Source of the DNA: a virus
Taxonomy: Duplodnaviria; Caudoviricetes
Virus record (IMG/VR): IMGVR_UViG_3300021602_000009
Location: 1 to 54,328 of that record
DNA: 54,328 bases
Direction: 5' to 3' (one strand)
Made by a program: the position numbers and the translations under genes
Part shown: positions 1-47,600 of the stretch, piece after piece
How positions within the stretch are numbered: position 1 is the first letter of the stretch
Layout: each line of letters begins with the position of its first letter
Notes under the pieces: model-generated
Database searches by the model: none
The model's input: the letters and a program-made list of their open reading frames with translations, nothing else
What the model was told of the DNA's origin: nothing

Positions 1-126
1 AGTTTGACAATGGAATGTTGGATAAAGAAACCTTTGAAGATTTAAAGACACGGTACAAGTACTATATTCCGTTACGTGGATTTGACAAAGAAATAGCAGA
101 GGACCGTTACGATTACAGTCCTGATA
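1..126. repeat. Terminal direct repeat, copy 1 (circular assembly overlap)
   Basis: 1-126 is identical to 54201-54326, and the reading frame of the giant gene is continuous across the join. Confidence 0.95.
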
Positions 127-2339
127 TGGGAACGCACTTTGTGGCACCACTTATCAAAGCCAAAGGACGTACATCACGTCCCGAAACTCCGTTTGCTTAT
201 ATTTTCTCTATGAATCACAGTGCCATTACCCAAAGCAATAAAAACAACCTGAACCAGGCATGGGTACGGTTGGCACGACAGGATAAATCCGGCACGTTGA
301 TACTTAAACAAAGCTGGTATAAGAAAGTAGGCGAAACGGACGAAGGACAACCGATATGGGAACAACAAAGCCCTGAATGGAATGCCGATCCTACGCAATA
401 CGGAATGAACATACAGAAGTTTGAAGAAGATATGGCAGCATTGGCAGAAAAAGGCGAAGCCGTGCAGAAACGCGGTAAACTGAACATTGGACTATTTGTA
501 AAACCAAAGCAAGCCAAACAGCACGAACTCCACGTTTACGAAAACGGAACGGAGCATGTGGTATATATAAATGCCAATCCGAAAGTGGCACGAGCCATAA
601 ACGGAGATAACCGTGTAGAAGCCGGAGCATTCTTTGATGGTTTATCCATGGTGAACCGATGGATGGCCGCTAACTTTACGTCAAGAAATCCGTTATTTAT
701 GGTAACGAACTTTGAACGTGATATAACCTTTGCCACTACCACGCTGGGAGTAAAAGAAGGAATTGTGTATCAGGCGCATTTTGTGGGTAACGTACCACAT
801 GCAGTAAAAGCCATTACCAACGTTATAGCCGGAAAAGGTGAGGTAAAAACAAAATACGACAAGTATGCCGAAGAATTTATTCTAAACGGAGGAAAGACCG
901 GCTACACGCATATTGTTGAAATTAAAAGCGTACAGAAACGTATAGAAGAAGAAATAAAAAGCGGAAAAGTACACGAACCCGGATTTGTGTTCAAAGCCTT
1001 TGAGTTAGGAAACTTAGTAGCGGAAAATACAACCCGCCTTGCTACTTACATTACTTCGCGAGAAGCAGGACGAGGAATACATGAATCCATCAGCAATGCC
1101 AAAGAAGTAACCGTAAATTTCAACCGAAAAGGCAGTGGAGCTATGGGAGCTGATGCCATGCGTAAATCATTCTTATTTTTCAACGTGGCGGTACAGGCAC
1201 TGGATAATATAACAGGAATAGCCAAAAAGCATCCGTATAAATTAGCTGCATTATTAGCTTCGTTTGTAGCCAGTGGATTATTAGCCCCAATCTTAGCCGG
1301 ATTACTCGGAGGTGATGAAGCCGAAGAAGCGTACAACAATCTTTCGGACTACGACCGACAAAACAACTGGTGTATATGGACCGGAAGCGGATTTTTGAAA
1401 TGGGCATTACCACAGGAGTTGCGTGTATTCCATGCATTAGGAGATAATGTATATCGTCATACGCAGGGCAAAGTAACCAATACCGAATTGGCAGTAAATA
1501 CCATGATAGGACTTACCGACTTATTGCCGGTGAACCCAATGGGAGCTATGAACAGTGAAGATAAGAAGTGGAAAATGGTTGCCAACTCGGTAACACCCGA
1601 TGTGATAAAACCATTTATGCAATTAGCACTCAATGTTACCTATACCGGTGGCAGTGCCTACAATCCGTTTGCCAATGATGCAGATCCCGGATTTGTACAA
1701 GCCAGCAAGAATAAAAAGGGAGAACCGTTTGCACCAGCCGTATTGGTATGGGCAGCACAGCAAACCGATAACCTTACCGGTGGTGATGGAGTAAAGCCGG
1801 GAGCTGTTAGTCCAAACCCTGATATTATCAATCACCTTATGCGCGGTTATATGGGTGGACTTTATACCATAGCCATAAAATCGGTAGATACTGGAGATAA
1901 GCTGATAGAAGGTAAAGACGTAAAACTACGTGATACGCCAATAAGTACACTTTATACAAGTAAAGATGACATCATGGAAAATAACTCCAGAATGCGCAAA
2001 GAATACAACGAAGTGAAAGCAGAAATCAATGACGAAAAGCATTATGTGAGTAAATATAAAAGCGGTGCCATGGATATTTACCGACAAACCGGTGATCTGA
2101 GTAAAACGGCAGAATATACTACTAAAATGCAAGCGTTATCCACGCAGAAGTTTATTGTACTAAAACAGTTGACCAATGGAATAACCAAACTGGAAGGCGA
2201 AATAGAAGATGCACCAAACGGAGAAGAACTACAGAAACGCGCCAATGAACTGAAGGGTTTTGTTATACGGATAAATAAAGCTAATGCGCCGGAAGAGATT
2301 AAAACAATTATGACGGAGTTAGAGAAATCTGCTAAATAA
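1..2339 (+). CDS. C-terminal part (LPD38-like region) of the giant polyvalent virion protein that starts at 41690
   Basis: Position 15 corresponds to 54215, which is in frame with the ATG at 41690. Motifs YIPLRGF, T-SRNPLF, ENTTRLATY and EVTVNFNRKG resemble LPD38-type C-termini. Confidence 0.8.
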   Translation, partial: FDNGMLDKETFEDLKTRYKYYIPLRGFDKEIAEDRYDYSPDMGTHFVAPLIKAKGRTSRPETPFAYIFSMNHSAITQSNKNNLNQAWVRLARQDKSGTLILKQSWYKKVGETDEGQPIWEQQSPEWNADPTQYGMNIQKFEEDMAALAEKGEAVQKRGKLNIGLFVKPKQAKQHELHVYENGTEHVVYINANPKVARAINGDNRVEAGAFFDGLSMVNRWMAANFTSRNPLFMVTNFERDITFATTTLGVKEGIVYQAHFVGNVPHAVKAITNVIAGKGEVKTKYDKYAEEFILNGGKTGYTHIVEIKSVQKRIEEEIKSGKVHEPGFVFKAFELGNLVAENTTRLATYITSREAGRGIHESISNAKEVTVNFNRKGSGAMGADAMRKSFLFFNVAVQALDNITGIAKKHPYKLAALLASFVASGLLAPILAGLLGGDEAEEAYNNLSDYDRQNNWCIWTGSGFLKWALPQELRVFHALGDNVYRHTQGKVTNTELAVNTMIGLTDLLPVNPMGAMNSEDKKWKMVANSVTPDVIKPFMQLALNVTYTGGSAYNPFANDADPGFVQASKNKKGEPFAPAVLVWAAQQTDNLTGGDGVKPGAVSPNPDIINHLMRGYMGGLYTIAIKSVDTGDKLIEGKDVKLRDTPISTLYTSKDDIMENNSRMRKEYNEVKAEINDEKHYVSKYKSGAMDIYRQTGDLSKTAEYTTKMQALSTQKFIVLKQLTNGITKLEGEIEDAPNGEELQKRANELKGFVIRINKANAPEEIKTIMTELEKSAK

Positions 2340-4193: not shown

Positions 4194-4526
4194 TTATTTT
4201 TTAAAAGTTTTCAATTCAAATTCAAAGAATTCATTTCCTTTGGTTACAATTTCGGTATCTACAATGGCACGGCGGATAAGTTTATCATTAAAGCCGTACT
4301 TTTTAGAAAGAATATCCTGTAAGGGTTTCACCGGGTTATCCCAATCAGATAGTGTGGAGCTAAACCCGAACTTAAAGTATATTTCGAACGGTGGGTCAGG
4401 AATAACGATTTTGCGTGGCAATAACCAAAGCAGTTTCGTTTGGTATGCTTTGTATTCGTCCGTTTTGTATCGTTTACCTTTCCACGCTTCGTTTACGGAA
4501 AGCGGTTTTTCGTTTAGTCTGGGCAT
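4194..4526 (-). CDS. rusA: RusA-family Holliday junction resolvase
   Basis: PLSVN near the N-terminus and the DWDNPVKPLQDIL...NDK acidic motif. Confidence 0.8.
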   Translation of the reverse strand: MPRLNEKPLSVNEAWKGKRYKTDEYKAYQTKLLWLLPRKIVIPDPPFEIYFKFGFSSTLSDWDNPVKPLQDILSKKYGFNDKLIRRAIVDTEIVTKGNEFFEFELKTFKK

Positions 4527-4529
4527 GAG

Positions 4530-5378
4530 TTATACACGTTGAGAACAGATATTGATATTATTGATAGGCGAAAATACACGGCTAATGGTATTAGTTGATA
4601 AATGCGTGTAAATCTGCGTGGTTTTTTGCGATTTATGTCCGGCAATTTTCTGCACCATAAATAAATCTGTACCCGCTTCGACCATATGCGTAAAAGCACA
4701 ATGCCGGAGTAAGTGCGGATAAATGCGTTTTTTGATATTTGCTTTACGTGCTAACTTTTTGAGCGTAGTACCCACACTTGTTTCGGAATACTGCGCGTCG
4801 AACTGACCATTTAAAACATAGATTTTGGATTTATATTCTTCCCAATATTTTTCGAGCAAAGGAATAATAATCTCCGGCAACATAACCTGGCGATCCTTTC
4901 CACCTTTGGCATCAATCACATTAATAATCATACGGCTGCGGTCTATGTTTTCCCATTTCAGGTTGAGCAGTTCCGAAATACGCAAACCAGTACTGTACAG
5001 CAACGACAATACAACTTTGTGCTTAGTATTATCGCACACGTCGAACAGCATCTGAATTTCCTCCTGGCTGAAAACAATGGGCAGTTTCGTACTTTTACGC
5101 GGATAAGGTACGTTATCCAGTTTCCGCGGTTGGTGCCCAACTTCATTGTAGAAAAACTTTATAGCACACAATGCAGCCCGGTGCGAAGCTGAATTTTTAA
5201 TCTGTAACAAATAACTTTCAATCTGTTTCGCTGATATTTCGGAGGGTTTTGTAGCTGCCTTTTCGTGATACTTCAAAAACTTATCAATTTGCGCCACATA
5301 ACTTTCCTCTGTATTATGCGAATACTTCCGAAGCTGTATTGCTTTGGAAAGTTGGTTTAAATAGTTTCCGATATTCAT
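4530..5378 (-). CDS. Tyrosine recombinase, integron-integrase-like (N-terminal SAM-like domain, no IntI-specific insertion)
   Basis: LRKYSHNTEESY N-terminus; catalytic motifs GLRISE, KGGKDR, HLLRH, GH and TTQIYTH; 282 aa; divergent from a cassette array. Confidence 0.9.
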   Translation of the reverse strand: MNIGNYLNQLSKAIQLRKYSHNTEESYVAQIDKFLKYHEKAATKPSEISAKQIESYLLQIKNSASHRAALCAIKFFYNEVGHQPRKLDNVPYPRKSTKLPIVFSQEEIQMLFDVCDNTKHKVVLSLLYSTGLRISELLNLKWENIDRSRMIINVIDAKGGKDRQVMLPEIIIPLLEKYWEEYKSKIYVLNGQFDAQYSETSVGTTLKKLARKANIKKRIYPHLLRHCAFTHMVEAGTDLFMVQKIAGHKSQKTTQIYTHLSTNTISRVFSPINNINICSQRV

Positions 5379-5404
5379 TGTATAAATAGTTTAAAGTTAG
5401 TTAG

Positions 5405-5440
5405 TTGTGGAGTGGTGGGGATAGATATGAGTTAGGTGCA
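5405..5440 (+). other. attI-like primary recombination site (putative crossover G5431/TT)
   Basis: GTTAGGT core 52 bp upstream of the recombinase start, with no preceding attC-type hairpin; first boundary of the array. Confidence 0.6.
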
Positions 5441-5455
5441 ATTGTTTTGTTTAAA

Positions 5456-6109
5456 TTAAAAAGCCAACGCACTCTGCAAATTTTCCAAATTTGTAAAAGG
5501 TTTAGTCCATTGCTCTGCCATAGCTTTTGCAATACCTTCAAAGGTTTTACTTCTCATTTTACCTCTTATCTCAACAGGCATTTTAGCACACTCATATTCC
5601 CATTTACTTGTCTTTTTTACTTTACCGTTTGCATAAGTTAATGTTACAAATTCGCCTTTATCTACAATATCAGTAGGTACTAATTTCGGTAAATTTTTAA
5701 GCCATAAGCAAGTAGGTTTTTTGTTCTTATGCCCAAATTGATATGGCTCAATTATTTGGTCTGGCTTTCTGTATTTACTACTCATTACTCCTATCGGGTT
5801 TTCAATTGCTATTTTCGGTATATTACAATTAACCAATGCCATAAAAAAATCAATACCTTGTTGCTGTCTACCATCGGCTATTTTCTTTTTAAAATGAGCA
5901 GCACCACTAACAGCCAGGTGCGTACAAGGCGGGAAAAATATCCCCATGTCCCAACCCATATTTATAACTTCAAATATATCTTGTTGGTAATGCCATTCGG
6001 GGTGTCCTCCGCTACATTCTTGTATATCACAACTAAATGCTTCGTGTCCTAATTTTCGTAACTCTTTGGTTACCGCTTGTGATTCTTCACATCCTACTAA
6101 AATTCTCAT
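5456..6109 (-). CDS. Phage-type DNA cytosine methyltransferase (cassette 1)
   Basis: ILVGCEESQ and SCDI SAM-binding region, catalytic PPC, ENP motif, PYQFG and KPTCLW. Confidence 0.8.
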   Translation of the reverse strand: MRILVGCEESQAVTKELRKLGHEAFSCDIQECSGGHPEWHYQQDIFEVINMGWDMGIFFPPCTHLAVSGAAHFKKKIADGRQQQGIDFFMALVNCNIPKIAIENPIGVMSSKYRKPDQIIEPYQFGHKNKKPTCLWLKNLPKLVPTDIVDKGEFVTLTYANGKVKKTSKWEYECAKMPVEIRGKMRSKTFEGIAKAMAEQWTKPFTNLENLQSALAF

Positions 6110-6169
6110 AATTATATTTTTAAAATCCTCCCTTTTTTTAATTTAAACAAAACAACTGTTCGCTTCGCC

Positions 6170-6245
6170 ACCTAACAGCACCTAATGTCAAGCGGCACAA
6201 ACTAACCGATTATTGCCGCCAGCCATTAGCTGCAAAACGTTATAA
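6170..6245 (+). other. attC-like site 1
   Basis: ACCTAAC...GCACCTAATG/GCGGCA...TGCCGC/CATTAGCTGC...GTTATAA. Confidence 0.8.
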
Positions 6246-6285
6246 GCAAGTGCTACATTCGTGCTAAATTGAAAGTTCATTGCTC

Positions 6286-7056
6286 TTAATCCGTTTTAAT
6301 AATTTTTTCTTCCCAACGCTCTTTGAGTTTTTCAAACTCATTAAGGTTTTTTTCTACCAAAACAACTGTTCTGTCATTTTCAACACCAATTGCAGTTGTA
6401 CCGCTTCCTGCTGTAAAGTCTAAAACTACATCACCTTTTTTTGTATAGGTTTCAATGATGTATCTACAAAGGTCTTTTGGTTTCTGTGTTTTGTGCCAAG
6501 TCTTACCTTCGCTTTCAGCAGTCTTAAAATATTGAACGCTTCGTGGGTATCTTAGTCCATCACTTTTAACTTCAACTTGTTCAAAACTTCCATACACATC
6601 ATTTTCTGTTTGTTGTTTTCTAACACCTTTATTGTAAGCAGTACCTTCTGTCATTTGTGGGTAATAAACAGGTGTTCCTTTGCAAAACACAATAATATCT
6701 TCGTGAGCAACCAATGGTCTTTTTTTAGCGTTTAGAAATCCTGTTGCTTTTGATTTTTCCCACACCCAAGTATATTTAAACATTTTGGGGTTGCTCATTA
6801 TCAAAGCACTTGTAAATGGTTGCTGTGCGTGAAATACTATTGCTGTATTTTGTTTTGCAATCCTAATTACTTGCTCCCACATTTTATCAAATGGTATTAC
6901 TTCATCCCAACTGCATTGTGTAGTCCCAAAAGGTAAATCACAATAAATTAGGTCTATACTTTCATTTTTAAGTTTTGGTAAAAAATCAAGTGCATCTTCG
7001 TTAAAGATGTTTAATTTCCCCTCGCTCAAAAAATTATTAAAACTACTATTCTGCAT
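6286..7056 (-). CDS. N6-adenine/N4-cytosine DNA methyltransferase, beta class (cassette 2)
   Basis: Motif IV variant DLPF comes before HKTQKP and motif I DFTAGSGTT. Confidence 0.88.
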   Translation of the reverse strand: MQNSSFNNFLSEGKLNIFNEDALDFLPKLKNESIDLIYCDLPFGTTQCSWDEVIPFDKMWEQVIRIAKQNTAIVFHAQQPFTSALIMSNPKMFKYTWVWEKSKATGFLNAKKRPLVAHEDIIVFCKGTPVYYPQMTEGTAYNKGVRKQQTENDVYGSFEQVEVKSDGLRYPRSVQYFKTAESEGKTWHKTQKPKDLCRYIIETYTKKGDVVLDFTAGSGTTAIGVENDRTVVLVEKNLNEFEKLKERWEEKIIKTD

Positions 7057-7090
7057 AATTCAAAGTTTATCGTTTTTAATCCGCACCAGC

Positions 7091-7157
7091 TTATAACACC
7101 ACCTATACGCAAGTTTTGTGAAAAACAAAACCTGACGTATAGCTGTAAACGTTAGGT
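7091..7157 (+). other. attC-like site 2
   Basis: TTATAAC...CTATACG/GTTTTGT...ACAAAAC/CGTATAG...GTTAGGT. Confidence 0.8.
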
Positions 7158-7243
7158 GTAAGCGTGAAAAAAAGAAAAAGAAAACATTGATATAGAATTA
7201 TTAGCACAAATTGTAAAAGTACAAACAAATTAACATTAAATCC

Positions 7244-7579
7244 ATGAAAGTAAAAGACATTAATTATTACGTGAAATTCATTTTTTCCTCTCTTGACGGA
7301 CAGTTTTGTTTATCGACAACTGACTTAGAAGTTCTGAAACTCATTAAATCAGAAAAGACAAACGAATCCAAGAGAAATTATACAATTGGCGACATTGTCT
7401 ATTTCGACTCAAACGAAGAAAGAAACCAAAAATTAAAAGTAACCGATGTTAGAATCAGACGATTAGTTGATGACACCGAAAATCTTAAATACGGATTTGA
7501 TTCTTCTGACTGTGTAAACATGTTTGGCGAAAATAAAGAAGCACTATTCATTATTCACGTCACTATAGAAAAGATCTAA
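7244..7579 (+). CDS. Hypothetical protein (cassette 3)
   Basis: AT-rich ORF oriented opposite to the surrounding phage operon. Confidence 0.7.
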   Translation: MKVKDINYYVKFIFSSLDGQFCLSTTDLEVLKLIKSEKTNESKRNYTIGDIVYFDSNEERNQKLKVTDVRIRRLVDDTENLKYGFDSSDCVNMFGENKEALFIIHVTIEKI

Positions 7580-7823
7580 CGAATCGTTGATTTCTTTTCG
7601 TTCGACTTTTAAAACATTGACAATATAACTCAAAAGAATATGAGAGAATCTTAGGTTATCATAACCGCATTTTGACTTGATTTCGTTGATATGAAAATTA
7701 AATGTTTTACCGTTGAAAGACATAGTATTTATTAGGTTGACCTTACGACCTAAAGGTTTAAATTGTAAGAAAATAAAAGATTTAAAAATAAAATGAATTG
7801 TAAAATAAATTAAAAATAATGTT

Positions 7824-8321
7824 ATGAAAAAAGTCGTAAAGAACAAATTTATTTTAATTAGCTTGATTAGTTTAGGCTATTTATTGACGTCATGTGGAAC
7901 TTTAAATGTGTATGTAAACCAGAGTTCAACATATTCCAAGAAAAATCCAATTACGATTAATCAATCTTCAGATGATCAAAGTGGAACATTAGGAGAATTA
8001 CAATTTCTTTTACAGTCTAATGGCTACAAATTAATGTCTTATGGTGCCGCTAAAAAAGCTCTAAACTTAGACACAGAAGCTCATAGCAGCACTTTTCATG
8101 GAGAAATTACAAATTCAACAACATTTAAGTCTGTATATGTTTTAAATTTAAATTATACTTATTACTGGGATTCATTCTATTATGCATATAGAAGTTTCTC
8201 ATCTACTATAACTGATTTGAGAACAGGTGAAATAATTATGACAGCTAATTTTAGAGGTGATAAAAGTTGTCGTGCAGTTCTAACCGAATTAGTTGATAAA
8301 ATGAATTCAGTTATATTATAA
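7824..8321 (+). CDS. Putative lipoprotein (cassette 3)
   Basis: Basic N-terminus, hydrophobic stretch and LTSC lipobox. Confidence 0.75.
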   Translation: MKKVVKNKFILISLISLGYLLTSCGTLNVYVNQSSTYSKKNPITINQSSDDQSGTLGELQFLLQSNGYKLMSYGAAKKALNLDTEAHSSTFHGEITNSTTFKSVYVLNLNYTYYWDSFYYAYRSFSSTITDLRTGEIIMTANFRGDKSCRAVLTELVDKMNSVIL

Positions 8322-8383
8322 TAATTAACACGAAAAGGTATCAAATCATTGGTGAATTAAACGTAAAGACTAAAACGCCTAAC

Positions 8384-8515
8384 ACCTAACACACGCCTAT
8401 GTGCTTTGGCGGCTGACGTGCATTTAGCGGTCTTTGCTCCCGCATTCACTTTGTCGTTCCACGACAGCGAATGCTCCCGCAAACCGCCAAATGCCCATAG
8501 CCTCGGTCGTTAGGC
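8384..8515 (+). other. attC-like site 3
   Basis: ACCTAAC...CTATG/TTTGGCGG...CCGCCAAA/CATAG...GTTAGGC, with an inner stem TGTCGT/ACGACA. Confidence 0.8.
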
Positions 8516-8520
8516 GTAAT

Positions 8521-8730
8521 TTACCACAACTTAACTGTGATAGTCGCACATAATAGGCATAACGAAAATCCATTTTTTCCGTAAGCGAAGTATATAATTG
8601 GAAAATGTCTATATCCTTCTTTTGAAAGGTGTCCAAACTTATAATCAAATTTAAAACTACGCCTGACATCGGCTAAAACTTCATTGCCGTTTTCGTGCTT
8701 ATTCATAGCTTTGTAATCTCTTTCATCCAT
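8521..8730 (-). CDS. Small hypothetical protein (cassette 4); start lies inside the attC-like loop
   Basis: The ORF reads through the left box as LADVRRS, and its stop sits just inside the cassette boundary. Confidence 0.6.
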   Translation of the reverse strand: MDERDYKAMNKHENGNEVLADVRRSFKFDYKFGHLSKEGYRHFPIIYFAYGKNGFSLCLLCATITVKLW

Positions 8731-8793
8731 TTTTGTAATTTGAGAAGTTTCTGTGTTTTAATCGGCAACGCAGTTTAGCCGTGTCCGTTATGG
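8661..8793 (+). other. attC-like site 4 (left box variant GCCTGAC)
   Basis: CGGCTAAAACT/TTGCCG...CGGCAA/AGTTTAGCCG...GTTATGG. Confidence 0.72.
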
Positions 8794-8800
8794 CAGCAAT

Positions 8801-9079
8801 TTACACCACCTCATATTTACTCAATCGTTTCTCCAGTTCGGCAATACGTTTTTCCTTTTTATCAGCCCAGATGCGGTAGTTTACCGTCATAGCTTTTATT
8901 TGGATAAGTAAGCGGTCGATTTTATTCAGTGCAATTTTGAGTGGAGAGGAAAACTGACCGTTTTCAGGATCGTGAATCTGTTTGTGCAGAACAATGTGTA
9001 GTTGTTGCGGTGCAGATGGTTTTGTTTCCATAATCATAAATTCAGGAAACATGGTCTGTTGAATGGCGTTGTTTTGCAT
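8801..9079 (-). CDS. Hypothetical coiled-coil protein
   Basis: Tightly packed in the leftward operon. Confidence 0.65.
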   Translation of the reverse strand: MQNNAIQQTMFPEFMIMETKPSAPQQLHIVLHKQIHDPENGQFSSPLKIALNKIDRLLIQIKAMTVNYRIWADKKEKRIAELEKRLSKYEVV

Positions 9080-9081
9080 GA

Positions 9082-9267
9082 TTACTTAAATTTAGATTGT
9101 TTGTATAGTCTGTTTTTTCGTTGACTGGTAGTATGCCATGCGTTACAGTCTTTGCAGTAATACATGTTGCGTTCGCTGCGTACCGTATTGCCTTTTCGCC
9201 TTTTAATCCGCGACCGGCACAATACGCCAATAGCTCCGTATTTGTTATGACTTACTTTGTCGCACAT
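9082..9267 (-). CDS. Small zinc-finger-like protein
   Basis: MCDK...YYCKDCNAWHTTS motif. Confidence 0.65.
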   Translation of the reverse strand: MCDKVSHNKYGAIGVLCRSRIKRRKGNTVRSERNMYYCKDCNAWHTTSQRKNRLYKQSKFK

Positions 9268-9745
9268 GGTATAGAAAATAACCCGAAACAAAACCACCTA
9301 CCAAACAAATAAGGTGAAGCAAAGCAGCACTGTCGGGACGTAAAAAACTAAGTATCAGGTTAGCAGCAATCAGTATCAGGTTTATGATTACAGAACTTAA
9401 TCGTTTAAACAGAATTACGCTACTTTGGATAAAATGCAGGTATAACCCCAACATGACATACACCATTCCGCTGGCACCCACTACCGTAAGCGAATAACTG
9501 CACACCCACGAAGCACCCGAAGCCAACCCAATGATAAGCAATGCCAACACCACCGGACGAATATACAGGCGAAGCAATCGGAATAACGACCAGAAAGCAA
9601 AACTATTCAGCAATAAGTGCCAAACAGAAGCGTGTTGAAACATGTAGCTGAAATGCGTCCACCACGGAGAATGAGCAGAATAACCCAGCTCAGTGCCAAA
9701 ACAGCCGAATGTAACGGAAAATAGGATTAGAAAAGCATAGTTCAT
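9245..9745 (-). CDS. Rhomboid-family intramembrane serine protease
   Basis: YMFQHASVWHLLLN, catalytic GASG, C-terminal HLICLVGG and multiple TM segments. Confidence 0.85.
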   Translation of the reverse strand: MNYAFLILFSVTFGCFGTELGYSAHSPWWTHFSYMFQHASVWHLLLNSFAFWSLFRLLRLYIRPVVLALLIIGLASGASWVCSYSLTVVGASGMVYVMLGLYLHFIQSSVILFKRLSSVIINLILIAANLILSFLRPDSAALLHLICLVGGFVSGYFLYHVRQSKS

Positions 9746-9747
9746 AC

Positions 9748-10113
9748 TTACAAATTTGCAAAATGATTAGATTCTGACTGTTCCACTGCCGACAATACGC
9801 GTTCCCAGCCGGAGAAACCCTCCATATTATGATCGTCGATATACATGTGAGCATATACTTTTCGTGAATTACTACCGTATTTTTCAGTGTTCACCGGATT
9901 ATTGTCGTTGATGCGATGAAACTTAATGCCGGTATGAATCAGAAAATTGATAGCCTTAAGCAGTTCGGCACCATCACGGCTGGTCCATATAATAATGTAG
10001 TGACCATTATCGTACAGTTGGTTGATTACTTCCTTTGAATTGGGCAATAGCTCACCAATAGCAGGGAATTTATTGTGGACGATAGTTCCGTCGAAGTCGA
10101 TAGCAAGAATCAT
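9748..10113 (-). CDS. HAD-superfamily phosphatase-like protein
   Basis: IDFDGTI, WTSR and K...YIDD motifs. Confidence 0.85.
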   Translation of the reverse strand: MILAIDFDGTIVHNKFPAIGELLPNSKEVINQLYDNGHYIIIWTSRDGAELLKAINFLIHTGIKFHRINDNNPVNTEKYGSNSRKVYAHMYIDDHNMEGFSGWERVLSAVEQSESNHFANL

Positions 10114-19228: not shown

Positions 19229-19267
19229 TTTACGAAGGAATGAGATATGAGTATTTAATAAGATAAA

Positions 19268-19572
19268 CAGGTTCGTTGAAATTTTAGAGAAAGTTTGTTT
19301 GGACAGGGGTTCGACTCCCCTCACTTCCACATCATGCCAGTTACATGTTAGCTAACCCGTCGCTTTAGTACGGTGCTAAACTCACTCAAATTGCCTTTAG
19401 ATAGTATCGAAAAGGATTTCGAAAGTTTAGCAAACCGGGGGTGTTTGGTTTTGACAGCAGATAAGTAGATTTAATGGAGAACTTGCAAGCCAATAAACGG
19501 CAAAACAATCAGAATGTTTAACCCATCACTAAGAGTGGCGGTATAACAGCCCGCAGGGAGCTAAATCCCTGC
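19268..19572 (+). ncRNA. ssrA: Circularly permuted (two-piece) tmRNA gene
   Basis: The acceptor piece GGAC-AGGGG-TTCGACT-CCCCT-CACTTCC-A (19301-19329) precedes the 5' end GGGGGTG-TTTGGTTTTGAC (from 19437). It has a G3-U pair, inter-piece helices, a tag frame at 19499-19546 and a closing hairpin at 19553-19572. Confidence 0.88.
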
Positions 19573-19624
19573 ATTGTTTGAAGAATTTTAAAACAAAAAT
19601 ATAAACCAATTAAAAAACACGAGT

Positions 19625-20059
19625 ATGATACACTTTTTTCAAAACGCAAATGCGTGGGTGATAGGCGAAACCCCGATGTCGTTTGTACCAATTGCAGCCT
19701 ATTTTATGGAAAACTCTGACAACGTAGTGCAGAGTGTGAATCTCATTCCGATGAGTAAGAATTCGAATTTGCCAACATTTAGTGCTGTAAAAATTTCAAG
19801 CATTGCAAAAAATGAAGATGGCGAACTGTACGAAAGCGTAGCAGAATTTGCAACCGCAGTAGCCGGTTATTTTGCCACTTCTACCAATCCGGCTTACGTG
19901 AAAGGTAATCCGTTCACGTATGCTGATTTTACGGAAGAGCAATTGGCAGCATTGAAAGGTGAACCAGGATTATTTTCAGTAGCAATTCCATGGTGTGATG
20001 ATTTTAATGCACTACAAGCTGCTCTTATTGAAGCAGGATTAATGCAAGTAGAAGAATAA
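19625..20059 (+). CDS. Hypothetical protein
   Basis: Contains KGNPFTYADFTEEQLAALKGEPG, a collagen-adjacent motif seen in phage proteins. Confidence 0.75.
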   Translation: MIHFFQNANAWVIGETPMSFVPIAAYFMENSDNVVQSVNLIPMSKNSNLPTFSAVKISSIAKNEDGELYESVAEFATAVAGYFATSTNPAYVKGNPFTYADFTEEQLAALKGEPGLFSVAIPWCDDFNALQAALIEAGLMQVEE

Positions 20060-22638: not shown

Positions 22639-23910
22639 TCATGCTTTTTTCGTGGGTTTTTTATTCAGCAGGAAATCAATCACTTTCCGATTAGCTTCCG
22701 AAACCTTGTTGATATTGACTTTTGTGTTGCGGTTGGTATAAATTCCAGCCATGCCGGGAGTGGTTCGACCTTGCGCTAAATCAATAATAGGATCGGGAAC
22801 GTCGAGTTCTCCGGCAATGGTAGCCCACGAATGCCGTGCCCAATAACACGAAACAAAAGAAAGTACCAGTTTCAGGTTATCATTCATGCGCCGTTGTAGG
22901 TTGCGGTAATCGTCGGTGGTATAAGTATCGAGGAACGAAAGCAGGTATTTTTTACCCGGATAACGTTTGATAATTTCCATAGCTTCCGGTTCGATACGGA
23001 TAATAACCGGTTCGTTAGTTTTATCGCGCATAATCGAAAGCTGATCATTCCGAATATCCGCACGGGTAAGAAACAAAATATCCTTCACATTCATTCCACA
23101 CAGGAAAAAGGACAAGAAAAACAAATCAATGTATTTTTTCACGTCAGGAAATTCGGAAGTATGTTTTTTGCTCATTTCCTTTAGTTCAGCCTTGAATACA
23201 TCCATGTCGAGATTATACATGTATTGCAGGTCCTTAATCGTAACGTTTCGATGTTTGGTTTTGCTGCGCTTGATTTTAAACCTGCGGAACGGATAAAGGT
23301 CATACCCAATTAAATCGTGGTCAATAGCATCATTAAAAATAGTACGGATAGCGCGCATGTACACGCCACGTCCATTTACGCTCATTCCTGTTGATTCGCA
23401 GTAAGTATCAAAGTCTTTGAGCCAACCCACAGTAATGTCGGAAATATAAAATGTTTCCAAATTGACAAACGCACCCACTTTGACCAGCATTTGCGTATAT
23501 TGTGAGCGGGAAGAAGAAGCACGAAACTTAGCAGCGTAATTGTTGGTATAGGTTGAGAAATGCAGTTTCCTGCGCTCGTCCTTATCTAATTCCTCGTAAC
23601 CTTCGTCGCCAGATTCAATAAAGCGTTTTATTTCGGTGCCGGTTTTGAATTTAGTACGAAGTAAGCCACGCAGTTGCAAATCCTCCAGTACATTTTGTGT
23701 GTATGCCAATTTGTCGGCCACTACGTTATTCATCATCACCACACGAGGAACGCCCACAATTTTTCCAGATACAAAGTTTTCTTTTGGAACTTCAATACCG
23801 GTAGCAACATAAAATGCTTGTCGGTGAAAATTGAAGCGTATTTTCACCGGATATTTTCCGTTTGCTTTTTCTCGTCGTGATTCCAGCACGACCGTTATTT
23901 TCATATCCAT
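22639..23910 (-). CDS. int: Prophage tyrosine integrase (Bacteroidota type with arm-binding N-terminus)
   Basis: YPVKIRF arm domain, SAM-like core, CGMNVKD, YWARHSWAT and a C-terminal Tyr; adjacent to attP. The start is probably 23910 or 23904 rather than 24024. Confidence 0.9.
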   Translation of the reverse strand: MDMKITVVLESRREKANGKYPVKIRFNFHRQAFYVATGIEVPKENFVSGKIVGVPRVVMMNNVVADKLAYTQNVLEDLQLRGLLRTKFKTGTEIKRFIESGDEGYEELDKDERRKLHFSTYTNNYAAKFRASSSRSQYTQMLVKVGAFVNLETFYISDITVGWLKDFDTYCESTGMSVNGRGVYMRAIRTIFNDAIDHDLIGYDLYPFRRFKIKRSKTKHRNVTIKDLQYMYNLDMDVFKAELKEMSKKHTSEFPDVKKYIDLFFLSFFLCGMNVKDILFLTRADIRNDQLSIMRDKTNEPVIIRIEPEAMEIIKRYPGKKYLLSFLDTYTTDDYRNLQRRMNDNLKLVLSFVSCYWARHSWATIAGELDVPDPIIDLAQGRTTPGMAGIYTNRNTKVNINKVSEANRKVIDFLLNKKPTKKA

Positions 23911-23925
23911 GTGATTGTGGTTTGT

Positions 23926-24258
23926 TTGAAAATTGTACAAAACATTTGACGCATTGTGTCGCAAAGTTTCGTGTTTTTGCACATTGTATTGAAAATTGTT
24001 TGAAAATGGCTTTTTAGTAGACATAAAAAAAGTGATTTAGAGTTGCACATTAAAAAATGTAATCAACTGAAAATCACTTATAAAAGTATTCTTTTTTGTT
24101 TTGTCGGGGTAGCGGGATTCGAACCCACGACCCCCTGCTCCCAAAGCGAAAAACAACAAAGTTTTTATGTTGATTATCAGTTGTATATGTTTGTGGCGTG
24201 TGTGATTTTCAATAAACTGTACAATACACAGTGTGTGTTTTGAAAATAGATTGAAAAT
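23926..24258. other. attP region with putative arm-type sites
   Basis: TTGAAAAT at 23926, 23989, 24000, 24240 and 24251, including pairs 11 bp apart on both sides of the tRNA core. Confidence 0.65.
24104..24147 (-). other. attP core: 3' half of tRNA-Pro(TGG)
   Basis: The minus strand reads GCTTTGGGAGCAGGGGGTCGTGGGTTCGAATCCCGCTACCCCGA; the 5' half is absent. Confidence 0.9.
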
Positions 24259-41689: not shown

Positions 41690-44600
41690 ATGCCAACGAA
41701 CGACAAAGTACAAGCATTATACGACCAACTAACTACTGACGGTTACAATTTAGGTGATTACAATACATTTGCCACAAAGTTAGACAATCCTGAAAAAGTA
41801 AAATCACTTTATGAAGGAATAACCAAAGACGGCTATAATGTTGGTGATTTTGATACTTTCAGTTCAAAGATAGGAAGTGCGCCCATGACACGGCCACAAG
41901 AACAAAGCTACGCACTTACTCCCGAAATTAAACAAGGGATTGATATTGGCAATGGTGGAAGCGTGAAAGATGCACAGGGAAATGTATCGACACCATATCC
42001 AAGAAAAGGGACGATAGATTCAACTTCAATAAATACACCGAGCGTGGAAATTCCAGCAAGTGAACTTCCACAAGATAATAATCGAATTGTAATACCTACG
42101 CTTGATTATGGAGTTAAGCCATTACAAAACGATGCTATAAAACCATTACAGGATTACCAACCTATAAAACTTGCAACACAAAAAGAAGCAATTAATCCAA
42201 CCAATAACCCAAAAATAGACGTAAATAAACCTGCACAGGTAAAATCACGTAATTGGGATCAACGTATTTTGGACAGTGCAATACAATCAGTAAACTCATT
42301 AGGAGGTGGAGTTGAAGGCGCAATAGGTGATTATTATCAGAAGATGCAGGATATTTGGGGATTTGATTGGATGGGAAAACTTGCGGACAAATTTAGTTTA
42401 GCTTCAGCCGAAGTCAACGAAGGAGCAAAAGATTTCAAAAAAAACAATCCAGAAGAAGGACTTCCCGAAATGATTGGAGGTATTTTACCAATGGCAGCAG
42501 CTACAGTAGCCGATGTATATACCGGTGGAGCGTTAACCCCTGCCATAATGGGAACATTTGGAGTAAGTGGTTATGGTGATGGTATTCGGATGTATGACGA
42601 CATAAAATCAGCCAATGGCGAACAAGGAGACGATTTAGCGCGAACCGGTGCAGGATTAGGATATTCAGCCGTGATGCTGGGTACTATGAACGCACTCACT
42701 AAATTTGGAGTAGGAGGAGTTCAGAAACTTGCCAAAAGTGCAGTACTTCCCGAAATAATCAGCAATGTATTCAAATCAAGCCCTAAAGCCTTTGAAGGAG
42801 GAGCAAAAGAACTATTTGAAGCATACGCCAAAGCACAACCAAGTATTGCCGGTCAACTTTTGAAGAACGGAGTACACAGTGTAGCCACAATGGAAGGAAT
42901 GGAACTTTCAAAAATGGGAATTAATGCGCTTATCGGACAAAAACAAACCCTGAAAGACTGGACAAATACAGCCACAAGTGCTGCTGTTTCAGGACTTTTA
43001 TTTACAGCCGTTGCACCTTTCTCTATCAAATATGCCAACGATGCCAATTTAGCACGTATAATGGCACAGAAAGAAGTTACCATAGCAATGGACGGTAAGA
43101 ATCCGATAGAACTTATTCCAACCAAAAACGGAATGCAAGGACGTACACCGGACAATAAACTGGTAAAAGTAACACCGGAAATGGAAAACAATTCATTTAC
43201 CATTGAATCTAACCATTTTATTGATTTATTGAAGCAATTCAAACAAAGTAAAACGGTTGATCCAAACTTAGAACGCAATGTATTCTCCAATCGTGTAGCC
43301 GGAGTATTGAAAAACTTCATTACCGATAAAGGAAATATACAAGTTGCGGTAGATGAGCAGGGAAATAAACTATATATTTCGGGAAAAGACGAAAATGGCA
43401 ATTTGATTGGAGTAAATGGAAGTGGTGAAGTCCAGCCTATACCAGAAAATGCAAAGATTGAATCAGCACCAGTTGGAGATGTTCACGAATCCATAATGGC
43501 TGAATATGATAAGCAGCAGAAAAATGGGGACAAAAGGGACAACAGCGACGTTTTACAAAACGCATTGCCCGACGGTACTGATAATATGGAAAGTATAGTG
43601 AACCCCACTATACCCGAAGACATAGACCCTATCAATCCAACTTCGCATGTACAAGTTGGAATTGAAACCTTACAAACTCAACAGGCAATGGAAAAGGCGT
43701 TGGAAGGTATGGATTTTACTTTTGACCCGAAAGTGGCAGAATTAGACCCGCAAGAACAACACGCCATTTTATTACAAGTATTGGAAGATGAAAAACTGAG
43801 CGATGAACAAAAACAATCCATATCCGATTATTTAAACAGTGTTGCGGTAAGCAAACAGTTACATGCACAAAGGCAAATAGCCAGAAACAATCAACTACAG
43901 TTTGTCAATGATGAATTACGCGGTAGTGTAAATCAAAAGACCGGCACGTTGGTAAGAGCAAACATAAAAGGAGATGAAAATGCACAAAATGTGTTTGTAA
44001 CAGGTGGATTAGCCATAAAAACAACCCCTCCCCCTTCGGGTACTCCCCTTGAAACAAGTGGAGAATTGAGAGAGTTTGAAGTTGACCCTGAAAATTCTGA
44101 CGAAACAATTTTTTATAAAACCGGAAGAAAAAACGCTAACGGCACACCCGAAGTATTACCCACTACTATTGACAATTTGGAAGTAGTGGACCAATCTGAT
44201 TTAGAACAAACCATAAGCGAAACACAGGCAGCGTGGAATGACCATTTCCAAAAACAAGATAATGGAATAGATGCTGCGGTACAAGAATACTTTGCACCAA
44301 CGACCTCCCCTAACCCCTCCCAAGGAGGGGAACAAAACCAAGACCCATTGCAAGGAATTTCCAGCGGTGATACGGTGAACTACATTGATGATAATGGCGA
44401 CCAACAAAGCGGAATTATTCAGATTGATCCGGTATTAAGGCAAGAAGGGAAAGTATTTATTAATGATGAGGAGTGGCCGATGGAGAATGTGTTACCAAAA
44501 CAAAGCCAAGAGCCAAGTGCCAAGAGCCAAGATTCTGTGGACAATGGTGACGTTGCGGACAATAAGCAACAACCAACTTCACAATATCCCGAATTACAAG

Positions 44601-47600
44601 ATGGTACGCCTGATTTCAATAACATGACCGATGAACAGGTTATCAACTATACTCGTGAAACCAAAGGAGAAGAAGCAGCAAACGCCTTAGTTCAACGACA
44701 AGTAAAACGCCTACAAGGACAAATATCCGAAAATCAACGTGCTACAGCCAAGCACACCGAAGATACAAACAAACTACTTGCAAAGAGTAAAACAATGCAA
44801 GAGGACAACGCTATTGAAGCCAAACAAGCAGCCAAAGCTATAGCATTGAAAGAAGAATTTACTACTTTGAGTACTAAGTTAGCAGAAATGCAAACCTATT
44901 TACCGAAAGTAGAAGCACCTGCACCGGTTGAAACTCCACAACAAGCACCGAAATTACGCCCTGAAATTGCTCAACTGCAAAAAGAAGAAGCGGAACGGAA
45001 AGCGAAAGAAGAAGCAGTAAGCAGTAAGCAGTCAGCAGTCAGCAGTGAAGAACCAAAACCTATTGAAAGTGCAATAAATGATGAGAATCCAGCAATTTCA
45101 GGAGAAAAGAACAAAATAAATACCCCATTCCAACAACGCCAAAACAATTTGGGCGATTACGTTGACATGGAAGATTATATCCTTAGAGCAATAGCCGGAG
45201 GATTGAAATTCAAATGGAAAACGGACGGAGTAAAAAAAGGCATGGCCGATGAATTAGGATTTGGAGATAAAGTAGGAGAAAGACGAAATTATTTAAACCT
45301 GATTGACGAAAAGAACGGAATTACCCCACAAGACTTTGCTCACAACATTTGGAATGAGTATGGAGAAGATGGCAACGCAGGAGAAATACCCGGAGTTCGG
45401 AATATGACCGACCAGGACATACTGAATTTAGTGCATGATGTATTACGTGCTACCAAGAGCAATACAAGCGCATTGGAACAAGCCGAAGCCAAACGGAATA
45501 ATTTTGAACTAACCCCCGAAGATTACGGAATTTATGATAGCCTTACTCCACAAGAAATCAATTATCTGGAACAAATACCCGATGATATATTGGAATCTTA
45601 TTTGGGAATTACTAACTTTACGCCCGAACAATTAGATTATGTAACTAATTTACAAAACGAATATGGCAAAACTAACGACCAATCAGCGAATTCAAGCCCA
45701 AGTGAACGCAATCAAGGACTTGAGAGCGAAGAATCAATCCAATCTGGACAAAGCAATAGACAAGAGGTTGTCGAACAAAAATTCTTGACAGAAAAGGAGT
45801 TTATAAAACAATACCTTTTAGATTATATTGATAAAAACGGAATTTCAGAACAAGATTTTGAAGATTCAGATTCGTATGATGATATTTTCAACGAAGCATC
45901 TGACACTTATCCTGAATATATTACCGAACTTAAAAATACAGGTAAGCTGCAAGAATGGTTTGATAGCGCAAAATTGGGTGATAAAATTTCCATACGAAAA
46001 GGAACTGAAACAGCAGGTTTTGAAGTAAATGATTTTGTTGATACTAATAAAGAAAAAAACGATTCCAAAGCAAAGCGAGAAGAAGAAAAGAAAGCAGAAC
46101 AAGAAAGATTATTTAAAAGTATTGGGATTGATAAAAAGTCAAACAACCAACCTAAAGAACCAGTTTTATCTCAACCTCAACTCGATACCCAAGAACTCGA
46201 TACCTACATAGCCGAACAAGACCACAATACCAACCCTACTGACAAACAGAAGGAAACAGGCATTTACCCGAAAGCCCGTGTAAACCTACAGCACCACAAT
46301 ATAACCATTGAAACGCTGAAAGGTACCGAACGTTCAGGGATTGACGAAGGCGGTCAGAAATGGAGCGTAACCATGCAAAATCACTACGGTGAGTTAGATG
46401 GTACAGTTGGTTATGATAATGATCCGATTGATGTGTTTATTGGTCCGAATCCAAAACAAGGGGAAATCTTTGTTGTGGATCAGATTTTGCCCGATGGTTC
46501 ATTCGATGAATCAAAGGTAATGTTAGGTTTTGACAGTGCCGAAGAAGCCAAGGCAGCTTATATGAGTAATTATTCCGAAGGATGGGACGGTTTTGGCTCA
46601 ATTACTCCTGCCGGTGATAACTTCAAGGCATGGTTGTATGATGGCAAGAAACAAAAGAAACCTTTTGCAGAATATGTGGGGACACCGAAGGCGGTTGAAA
46701 CTTCCGGGGACAATGGAGATGTTGCAGACAATAAAACACAACTCACCCCTTCCGAACGTTACGACAATGCCACAACACCCGAAGAACGCCACGCGGCAGC
46801 GGTGGAGATAGTGCAAGCGTTGGAAAAGACCTTGCATGTAGGCACAACACCGGCACAGGTATTGAAAAGTACCGACGAGTTTATGTCAACGCTCAAAACG
46901 CATATATCCGATGCTGAATACCAAAAAGCAGAGCAATACCTTGCCAGCGGACAAAAATTAGCTGCGGTACGTTTAGGCGGAAAGATACTGATAAACATGG
47001 AGCATAACTTCGATGCCAAAGTATTGACCGAATCGTACATGCACGAAACAGCACACAAAGCCTTTGATGTAGCGTTTCGTGGTGAAGATTTAAGCAACCT
47101 CGACATACCAAACATTCAGGATTATATCCCTTCTGTATATTGGGGCGAAGATAACGCCATGAAAGCCACGGAAGTAGTAGCGCATTATGTAGAAGAATTA
47201 TTGAATAAATATACTCCAGAACAGATAAAAAATGGAGAAATAGACTTATCTTTGTTGAACGAAGATGTGCAATATATTGTTACCAAAACATTAAACAAAC
47301 TTACCAATGGAAAAATTGATAGTATCGGACAAGAACGGTTCAATGACCTTAGAAGTATATCCGCAAGTGATAGAGGAATACAAGCGGACGGACACAGCGG
47401 GAAAAACGATGTGGGAGAAACTGGAGATAGTAAACCAGATAACGGAAAGCCTGGGACTGAGCCAAGGTTCACCAACGGAAAAATAATATCCAAAACAAAA
47501 ACACCAATTGGAACGGAAGTAAAAGTAAAATATAAAACTCCAATAGGTGCAGAAACAAAGATATTCTATACCGATGGCGAAATACCAATGACGTTTAATA

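Follow-up and report, generated by a model that had tools for sequence, protein, structure and literature searches.

In canonical integrons such as those of IntI1 and of VchIntIA from Vibrio cholerae (PDB 2a3v), the recombinase stands beside a primary site and cassettes are joined at G/TT. The cassettes end in imperfect inverted repeats (attC sites) with outer AAC...GTT boxes, the left of which matches the start of its own cassette; one strand of these repeats folds better than the other, and the arrays are shuffled and contain duplicates. Here we describe an array with the same features in the IMG/VR viral contig IMGVR_UViG_3300021602_000009 (Caudoviricetes) of a phage from lake water, classed as linear and 82% complete, whose whole length of 54,328 bases we call the window. 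The cassette array and the gene of a 282-amino-acid tyrosine recombinase form a leftward-transcribed block at window positions 4530-8800. We consider it quite likely that this block is an integron-like gene-capture platform of a Bacteroidota phage, run by a small tyrosine recombinase that lacks the insertion typical of IntI and acts on hairpin sites.

In integron biology, the ability to use folded single-stranded attC sites is attributed to the IntI insertion, and the paper on the VchIntIA structure reportedly deals with the role of the I2 helix. A role of this helix in attC recombination is described in two further papers (PMC7790495, PMC4792948). Detection programs require the insertion, so arrays of the window type are filed as orphan clusters of attC sites lacking integron integrases (CALINs) and their enzyme is discarded. 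Previous work reported 21 scattered recombinases without intI_Cterm near attC sites, always with fewer than three attC, and judged them not to be IntI (Cury 2016, PMC4889954). These cases share with ours the position of an insertion-less recombinase beside attC sites but not the scale: here relatives are found on 375 viral and 433 genomic contigs, with long arrays and a conserved attI. The insertion has been described as not fully conserved in an 'integron-like subgroup' (Smyshlyaev 2021, PMC8138268), and one complete integron has been reported in Bacteroidetes proper (Neron 2022, PMC9024848). In phages, orphan DNA methyltransferases have been found flanked by attC-like sites, one example being Polaribacter phage P12002L, and such sites form recombinase-less arrays in virulent phages as they do here (Qi 2023, PMC9892861). 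That paper reports no associated recombinase or attI, whereas the arrays described here go with a dedicated recombinase family and with an attI, and reach at least 17 sites; Flavobacterium and Cellulophaga phages do not appear in its main text. A full-text literature search, with most subscription journals outside its coverage, returned no paper on a phage cassette system with an insertion-less recombinase.

The initial annotation, made from the letters alone, had described the 282-amino-acid recombinase, four hairpin-closed units and GTT boundaries, and all of these are in the sequence. Four cassettes lie between 5431 and 8787, with the junction G of G/TT at 5431, 6239, 7151, 8509 and 8787 (coordinates re-derived by script), the last of these in the final GTT that closes the array. 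The annotation also stated that the left box of each hairpin matches the start of its own unit. This is true at all four sites, each left box being the reverse complement of the first 8-10 bases of the same cassette, with one mismatch at site 4 (GAC for AAC). The features are listed here, with R'' denoting the left box and R1 a covariance model of the hairpin presented below.

4530-5378, minus strand: tyrosine recombinase, 282 amino acids, XerA/IntI-like without the IntI insertion (Pfam, NCBIfam, AlphaFold2 model).
5379-5444: attI-like primary site, core GATAGATATGA followed by GTTAGGTGCAAT, junction G at 5431, 52 nt upstream of the recombinase start codon.
5431-6238: cassette 1, 808 bp (chain walk), starting with GTTAGGTG at 5431; open reading frame (ORF) 5456-6109, minus strand, 217 amino acids, methyltransferase-like phage protein.
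6165-6250, minus strand: attC-like site 1; R'' CACCTAAC at 6169-6176; closes G6239; R1 60.2 bits, E 2.4e-14.
6239-7150: cassette 2, 912 bp, starting with GTTATAAGC at 6239; ORF 6286-7056, minus strand, 256 amino acids, N6/N4 DNA methyltransferase (PF01555, 2.5e-20).
7086-7162, minus strand: attC-like site 2; R'' GCTTATAAC at 7089-7097; closes G7151; R1 54.0 bits, E 1.3e-12.
7151-8508: cassette 3, 1358 bp, starting with GTTAGGTGT at 7151; ORFs 7244-7579, plus strand, 111 amino acids, and 7824-8321, plus strand, 165 amino acids (lipoprotein-like N-terminus).
8379-8520, minus strand: attC-like site 3, long and GC-rich; R'' ACACCTAAC at 8382-8390; closes G8509; R1 19.4 bits, E 0.006.
8509-8786: cassette 4, 278 bp, starting with GTTAGGCGTA at 8509; ORF 8521-8730, minus strand, 69 amino acids.
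8656-8800, minus strand: attC-like site 4; R'' TACGCCTGAC at 8658-8667; closes G8787, the distal array end; R1 35.8 bits, E 1.6e-7.

The same rule is found in relatives of this locus. A viral scan with the single protein returned only distant relatives (28-29% identical), while a profile of 27 homologues found relatives on 375 viral contigs, of which the best 80 were fetched and make up the viral loci analyzed here (L numbers are our locus handles), and on 433 contigs of GTDB species genomes. Arrays were traced by a chain walk that starts at the attI GTT, seeks the reverse complement of the next 8 bases and then proceeds to the GTT closing the hairpin. After low-scoring or very long steps, probably false, had been cut, 135 cassettes were kept, 96 of them distinct, in arrays of up to seven cassettes of 123-1897 bp each; the sites measure 48-154 nt, with a mode of 131-138. 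The own-start rule holds exactly, with a hairpin and at most 1.5 kb from the attI GTT, at 24 of 38 dereplicated loci. In the controls it held at 2 of 180 GTTs chosen at random from 6 kb or more away, and at 0 of 38 loci when the keys were swapped between loci. Over 80 distinct cassettes, the R'' 12-mer matches the start of its own cassette at 10.25 of 12 positions and the box closing the hairpin at 6.4 of 12. Among the distinct cassettes of cultured isolates, 19 of 22 obey the rule. The cassettes thus carry the own-start match that, as in integron cassettes, points to a circular intermediate.

The initial annotation had proposed folding both strands of the four sites. All four fold, each time better on the minus strand (z of -3.35, -6.18, -6.86 and -1.14 for sites 1-4, against -0.76, -3.54, -5.34 and -0.63 on the plus strand), and the bottom strand of site 1 reaches -17.9 kcal/mol. 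Of 97 sites compared, 92 fold more stably on the bottom strand (Wilcoxon 7e-17), with means of -22.9 versus -19.4 kcal/mol. The site logos read TAAC-A on the left and C-GTTA...G.AAT on the right, with an invariant A at +10 opposite C. In order, the bottom strand forms an outer helix of at least nine pairs, a 4-nt bulge restricted to the 5' arm, three further pairs, a G.G mismatch and a long stem; occasional single bulged bases also occur. Classical attC sites carry extrahelical bases in the inner box that set strand choice, a role that the bulge, the mismatch and the single bulged bases may or may not play here. The phage-family hairpin differs from them in its longer outer box, the conserved wobble at position 10, the one-sided 4-nt bulge and the mismatch.

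When 44 bottom strands are aligned, 78.1% of the cells pair compared with 58.6% in shuffles, none of 500 reaching 78.1%, and the covariation score is 0.491 versus 0.167 (at most 0.153 in slid versions). Compensatory, two-sided changes are seen in 16 of the 18 inner-stem pairs. Three G.U pairs are conserved (in 40, 31 and 34 of the 44 sequences), and these become A.C mismatches on the top strand. Outer-box pairs 1-8 pair poorly in linear arrays, as expected of hybrid boxes, and are no evidence alone. Among our alignments, A3 is A2 minus five misaligned rows (L059_0, L076_0, L070_0, L047_0 and WIN_2).

The strand asymmetry, in stability and in G.T wobbles, is our main argument for a single-stranded substrate, which would be the bottom strand. 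Alternatively, the same enzyme and sites could react as duplexes, in the manner of Xer/dif or lambda, the hairpin being incidental, for example a terminator or a pair of binding sites. The enzyme is closest to XerA and Xer, which act on duplex sites, it has no insertion of the kind that handles extrahelical bases in IntI, and attI looks like an ordinary duplex site; however, a duplex reaction would account neither for the greater stability kept by the bottom strand in 92 of the 97 sites nor for three conserved G.T wobbles that are A.C mismatches on the other strand, nor for stem pairs that covary while their sequence is free, and boxes 48-154 nt apart fit no known duplex core site. We regard this alternative as unlikely.

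R1, the covariance model obtained from the 44-site bottom-strand alignment, has four matches in the window and no more, each of them on the minus strand, and the matches at 8656-8800 (E 1.6e-7) and 8379-8520 (E 0.006) were outside its training set. In the 80 viral loci it gives 240 matches at E<=0.01, of which 237 share the strand of the recombinase; 236 of these are upstream of the gene as well, in a space of 412 kb out of the 1.10 Mb searched. Of the 61 loci whose upstream sequence is 1 kb or longer, 59 have an R1 site, and the largest array has at least 17 sites (L047). Counts with default filters are lower bounds for short sites: in Polaribacter phage P12002L, R1 finds none with these filters and 15 at E<=1 with filters off, 8 of them at E<0.01. 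To our knowledge, Rfam contains no attC family, and its search of the region gave no match. Around 16 canonical intI genes (12 from the phylum Bacteroidota and 4 gammaproteobacterial; 304 kb) R1 gives 7 weak matches of 17.8-23.1 bits. Because R1 barely scores the sites near canonical intI, the window-type sites form a class of their own. A few R1 sites are not upstream of the recombinase, namely two in L053, some 8 kb downstream and on the opposite strand (9370-9873, minus strand), and one downstream in L047 (13491-13630, plus strand); they may represent second arrays or contig permutation.

The primary site is also constant. In 51 distinct loci the recombinase gene is preceded, at a distance of about 50 nt, by a conserved attI, TACATATAnTA-GTTA (extended consensus TACATATa.ta-GTTA...gcAAt). 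The final attI search pattern misses the one-base variant ATAGATAG in 12 of the 80 loci. Cassette content at this site adjoining the recombinase switches at G/TT: some loci agree completely as far as GTT and are wholly different after it (L058, L059, L060 and L061; L077 and L082). Contig L035 stops exactly at GTTA and many contigs stop 50-500 nt upstream of the recombinase gene, as expected where assemblies break at a variable array.

We then compared the enzyme with known families. The recombinase matches Phage_integrase (PF00589, 2.3e-37) and SAM_4, and its catalytic residues R133, K158, H222, R225, H248 and Y257 are all present and invariant across the 27 homologues. It falls under every NCBIfam cut-off, IntI and Xer alike: the best match is XerA_Arch with 192.6 bits (cut-off 220), followed by the integron integrase TIGR02249 with 186.6 bits (cut-off 265; match split into two stretches), XerD with 167.9 (329.6), XerC with 160.8 (335) and PRK15417 with 125.7 (435). 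Against VchIntIA (2a3v), about 42-43 amino acids of the IntI-specific insertion with the I2 helix are absent, query residues 177-198 standing opposite chain residues 179-243. The spacing from box I to box II is 91-93 amino acids in all array-linked groups, phage and chromosomal, 94-98 in host Xer proteins and 133 in those 14 of the 19 IntI rows for which the motif search did not misfire. Consistently, the AlphaFold2 model (predicted local distance difference test score 85) has only a loop at 183-198 and no extra helix, and its best PDB fold matches are XerA, archaeal Xer and then IntI4.

When 88 proteins were placed in a quick tree, the 19 IntI rows formed a single clade (100% support in the Shimodaira-Hasegawa-like approximate likelihood ratio test, SH-aLRT). 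The window recombinase groups with 28 phage and close chromosomal rows (29 rows, support 96) outside that clade, and ten host Xer genes fall into two separate clades. The tree comes from a quick search with SH-aLRT support only and a very long outgroup; its deeper forks, including the question of a sister relation to IntI, are not settled by it. Four rows were left out (L108 and L139, fragments; L010, no ORF match; L190, an unpublished genome). The family resembles Xer (XerA, PDB 5hxy and 4a8e; XerC/XerD) in its best sequence and fold matches, size, two domains and lack of the insertion, but unlike Xer it stands in the context of a cassette array instead of dif, under all Xer cut-offs and apart from the clades of host Xer genes. 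Judged by insertion, curated score and tree, the recombinase is not an IntI. The evidence supports a system that works like an integron with an enzyme from outside the IntI family. The initial annotation was right on the missing insertion, on the non-IntI nature of the enzyme and on the distinction between this enzyme and the prophage integrase, which is a 461-amino-acid protein encoded at 22639-24024 (PHROG integrase, E 1.1e-14). Separately, L141, L161 and L138, from metagenome-assembled genomes (MAGs) of other phyla (Bryobacterales, Longimicrobiales and Gemmatimonadetes), carry insertion-less recombinases that group in the quick tree as sister to canonical IntI (support 96) and could bear on the origin of the insertion.

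Homologues of the recombinase number 1892 proteins at E<=1e-20, are about 277 amino acids long and are 84-56% identical for the best non-self matches. The closest genomic relatives (50-56% identical) are in Bacteroidota MAGs, for example Ginsengibacter, Flavobacterium, Pedobacter and Chitinophagaceae, and the window cassette genes have DNA matches of about 70% in cultured Flavobacterium, Cellulophaga and Polaribacter phages. These two observations make a Bacteroidota host likely, though not proven, for the window phage. The proposal of a phage system holds for the 80 viral loci but is too narrow, since arrays also occur in Bacteroidota chromosomes and on a Chryseobacterium plasmid.

The chromosomal relatives also differ in layout. 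In the viral arrays, the longest ORF is on the recombinase strand in 93 of the 96 distinct cassettes, so that the hairpin lies 5' of the ORF and the gene is read towards attI and the recombinase on the strand that folds; ORFs often start within the long hairpin loop. Canonical integrons, with mostly promoterless cassettes that a common promoter transcribes in the direction away from attI, differ from these arrays in this orientation and in that the carrier here is a phage. The proposal of integron-type gene capture is thus upheld by site architecture, attI and junction variation, with the reservation that the cassette ORFs are inverted relative to the classical arrangement. Among more distant chromosomal relatives (37-41% identical), the array is downstream of the gene with ORFs on the top strand (20 of 21 ORFs), as on a Sediminibacterium chromosome and a Chryseobacterium plasmid, and Pedobacter agri has the classical divergent layout; for these reasons the inverted orientation is a trait of the phage-type clade. 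A promoter within the long hairpin loops was considered and dropped, as no motif supported it. The downstream arrays have sites of the same class on the strand opposite to the recombinase, in Bacteroidota chromosomes (L140 9345-16809; L126, L115, L125 and L163) and in the plasmid of a cultured strain (L226, Chryseobacterium sp. SNU WT5 plasmid NZ_CP041688.1, 11145-17453). Many MAG contigs stop just past the 37-41%-identical recombinase gene.

If the cassettes are mobile, related arrays should differ by whole units. With cassettes clustered at 85% identity, L060 and L064 have the order c0 c6 c23 c1 c2 c24 c25, and L063 and L065 the order c4 c5 c2 c1 c0 c26 c27, both orders being recovered from two samples each. 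Cassette c3 is present three times in L019, and one cassette is common to arrays of different recombinases. Related phages therefore do not carry one fixed set of genes, which was one part of the outcome that the initial annotation had named as fatal to it; they vary exactly at the GTT junctions.

Public sequencing runs were compared as assembled contigs aligned to window positions 4400-9400. The full stretch was found in one run (X1), the probable source sample, and runs X2 and X3, apparently the same data filed twice, were counted once. Four apparent joints with short sides of 25-28 letters were disregarded, as were the habitat labels of runs that contain a small share of the stretch. Contigs of the probable source sample break at 6238-6258 and within site 3. 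The core of site 3 (window 8388-8512) has a summed contig depth of 177.6 versus about 20, indicating a multi-copy element in that metagenome, and several different sequences follow it after 8510-8514 or precede it before 8388; it also occurs, with different flanks, in a freshwater run of another study. A soil/wetland contig (X2/X3) matches 6239-7097 with 30 differences and is unlike the window before 6239, cassette 2 having a different left neighbour there, and a contig of a separate freshwater study is identical over 8786-9010 and unlike it before 8786.

Cultured phages vary in the same way. Seven Baltic Flavobacterium phage isolates have 9-15 R1 sites per genome (79 matches with filters off, all on the ORF strand), and R1 sites are also present in Cellulophaga phage phi17:1 and in Polaribacter phages P12002S and P12002L. 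The arrays of the seven Flavobacterium isolates differ by whole cassettes and in order: 8 6 10 0 5 1 2 3 4 7 in mumin6-1, 8 6 0 5 1 2 3 4 7 in mumin6-3 and 11 16 9 1 2 0 3 4 7 in hattifnatt9-1. The phages mumin6-1 and mumin6-3 are exactly one 506-bp cassette apart. Their flanks, of 4189 and 6306 nt, have 4 mismatches each, and the junctions share only AAC-GTTA (3+4 letters). Exchange through long homology is ruled out for this difference, the junctions sharing 7 letters only. It is very improbable, in our view, that the hairpins are ordinary intergenic repeats or terminators and the mosaicism a product of homologous or illegitimate phage recombination with no dedicated system. Such a view could draw on the mosaic nature of phage early regions, on the intergenic position of the hairpins and on illegitimate recombination at GTTRRRY-like motifs, which has been raised as a possibility (Qi 2023, PMC9892861), but terminators would not be expected to follow the own-start rule (24/38 versus 2/180 and 0/38; 19/22 in isolates), the 506-bp difference has 7 shared end letters only, identical cassettes stand in different orders and no Rfam family matches the region.

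Among cultured Polaribacter phages, Freya_1 to Freya_10 (MT732463-MT732472) are ten near-identical isolates of 43,978 to 48,920 bases with an integrase gene 30% identical to that of the window. The gene lies 71 to 4168 bases from the record start, so variable sequence precedes it.

The cultured phages also bear on which enzyme moves the cassettes. Because arrays without a recombinase vary, an adjacent gene is not needed in cis: either the enzyme must be able to act in trans, or the recombinase-less arrays must have changed in an ancestor or during co-infection. A canonical IntI from the hosts could then build and shuffle the array in trans, the 282-amino-acid recombinase serving dimer resolution or phage integration beside a hot spot. 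The whole-cassette variation of recombinase-less cultured-phage arrays would fit, as would the frequency of canonical IntI in the GTDB phylum to which Sediminibacterium belongs, where 90 of 301 sampled genomes have one that scores over the curated cut-off. IntI1 has moreover been reported to recombine 5 of 6 phage attC sites, one of them from P12002L (Qi 2023, PMC9892861), a phage with R1-class sites when filters are off. A host IntI would leave unexplained, however, why attI keeps a fixed distance to the recombinase gene in 51 distinct loci and why 236 of 240 sites lie upstream of that gene on its strand; canonical IntI is found in 0 of 5 host genomes carrying arrays, where the best TIGR02249 matches are the insertion-less genes beside the arrays, R1 matches around the 16 canonical intI genes are only weak, and the phage already owns the separate 461-amino-acid integrase. 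We judge this alternative to be quite unlikely, and the adjacent enzyme would instead be the catalyst of cassette recombination.

The frequency of IntI in that phylum is far above what the literature on complete genomes suggests. Among the Gammaproteobacteria sampled, canonical IntI occurs in 91 of 251 genomes (a count that includes two unpublished genomes, G047 and G149), and in the Chlorobi MAG G008 a canonical IntI (L177) occurs together with an insertion-less relative (L113).

Several points weigh against a dedicated phage platform. The I2 helix has been described as needed for attC recombination and I2-less recombinases near attC as not being IntI (Cury 2016, PMC4889954). A tyrosine recombinase is absent (PF00589 in 0/5) from five cultured phages with varying arrays, P12002S included, and IntI is common enough in the wider phylum (90/301) for a trans-acting IntI to be conceivable in places. 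The hairpin alignment behind R1 was seeded from sites chosen by our own rule, site 4 has GAC for AAC and site 3 has a weak R1 score. Many of the 80 viral loci are the same phage repeated from different samples. Finally, the comparisons rest on assembled contigs only, from which cutting of the sites by the recombinase is inferred.

The cargo suggests what such a platform would be for. In the window, the cassette 1 ORF has no Pfam match, but Flavobacterium and Cellulophaga phages have homologous DNA whose annotation reads DNA methyltransferase. Cassette 3 is the sole window cassette with plus-strand ORFs, neither of which matches a family in Pfam or NCBIfam, and the ORF of cassette 4 starts within the loop of that cassette's own hairpin. 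In a set of 94 cassette ORFs (89 from related loci and the window's five), Pfam identifies C5 DNA methylase (4), N6/N4 methylase (4), Dam (2), PAPS reductase (3), TET-associated glycosyltransferase (TAGT; 1), radical SAM (1), the Thoeris inhibitor Tad3 (1) and Lar (1), and PHROGs add further methyltransferase families; the majority are nameless. This content suggests that the cargo is selected for counter-defence. Flavobacterium phages without a specific methyltransferase plated poorly on one host in a study whose text nowhere mentions integrons, hairpins or integrases (Nilsson 2020, PMC7077304).

We propose that a Xer/IntI-like recombinase without the I2 insertion would put circular cassettes into an attI about 50 nt upstream of its own gene, and would excise and re-order them by recombining attC-like sites, with a crossover within the core AAC-G/TTA. 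The sites would most likely react as folded single bottom strands, here the coding strand of the cassette genes; we propose this strand because it alone has the conserved G.T wobbles, the 4-nt bulge and the mismatch. The cassettes would make up a common pool in which DNA methyltransferases and other counter-defence genes abound and which would also supply the arrays of virulent phages without a recombinase of their own.

We see an even chance for a wider reading, in which the family is a second lineage of integron recombinases that handles folded single-stranded sites without I2 and serves Bacteroidota phages as a community-wide exchange of counter-defence genes, with recombinase-bearing temperate phages and hosts mobilizing cassettes in trans into array-only virulent phages and resetting host range cassette by cassette. 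Such a lineage may pre-date the I2 insertion or have evolved in parallel. If this is true, the insertion-less family is a second solution to the folded-site problem, or the ancestral one, and many orphan arrays are explained. Integron-type gene capture would then reach phages, as a store of anti-restriction and anti-defence genes, and chromosomal integrons have likewise been reported as stores of defence genes (10.1101/2024.07.02.601686). The host-range differences that depend on methyltransferases in cultured Flavobacterium phages, as measured earlier (PMC7077304), would also gain a mechanism. Cultured phage-host pairs exist, which makes the idea directly testable.

The other proteins of the window include a portal, a terminase-like protein, virion proteins and the 461-amino-acid integrase. 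Adjoining the 3' end of the recombinase gene, an ORF at 4194-4526 (minus strand) has a weak match to the Holliday junction resolvase RusA (E 0.0016, below cut-off). A giant ORF of 4213 amino acids at 41690-54328 (plus strand) is open at the contig end, and an ORF of 778 amino acids at 3-2339 (plus strand), open at its start, matches the C-terminal part of the giant ORF's PHROG families. Both open-ended ORFs have phrog_14770 and the DarB-like antirestriction family phrog_10089 in common; the contig is thus probably circularly permuted and would code for a protein of about 5000 amino acids related to antirestriction proteins. At 19240-19637 (plus strand), ARAGORN predicts a permuted transfer-messenger RNA-like gene with the tag peptide GKTIRMFNPSLRVAV.

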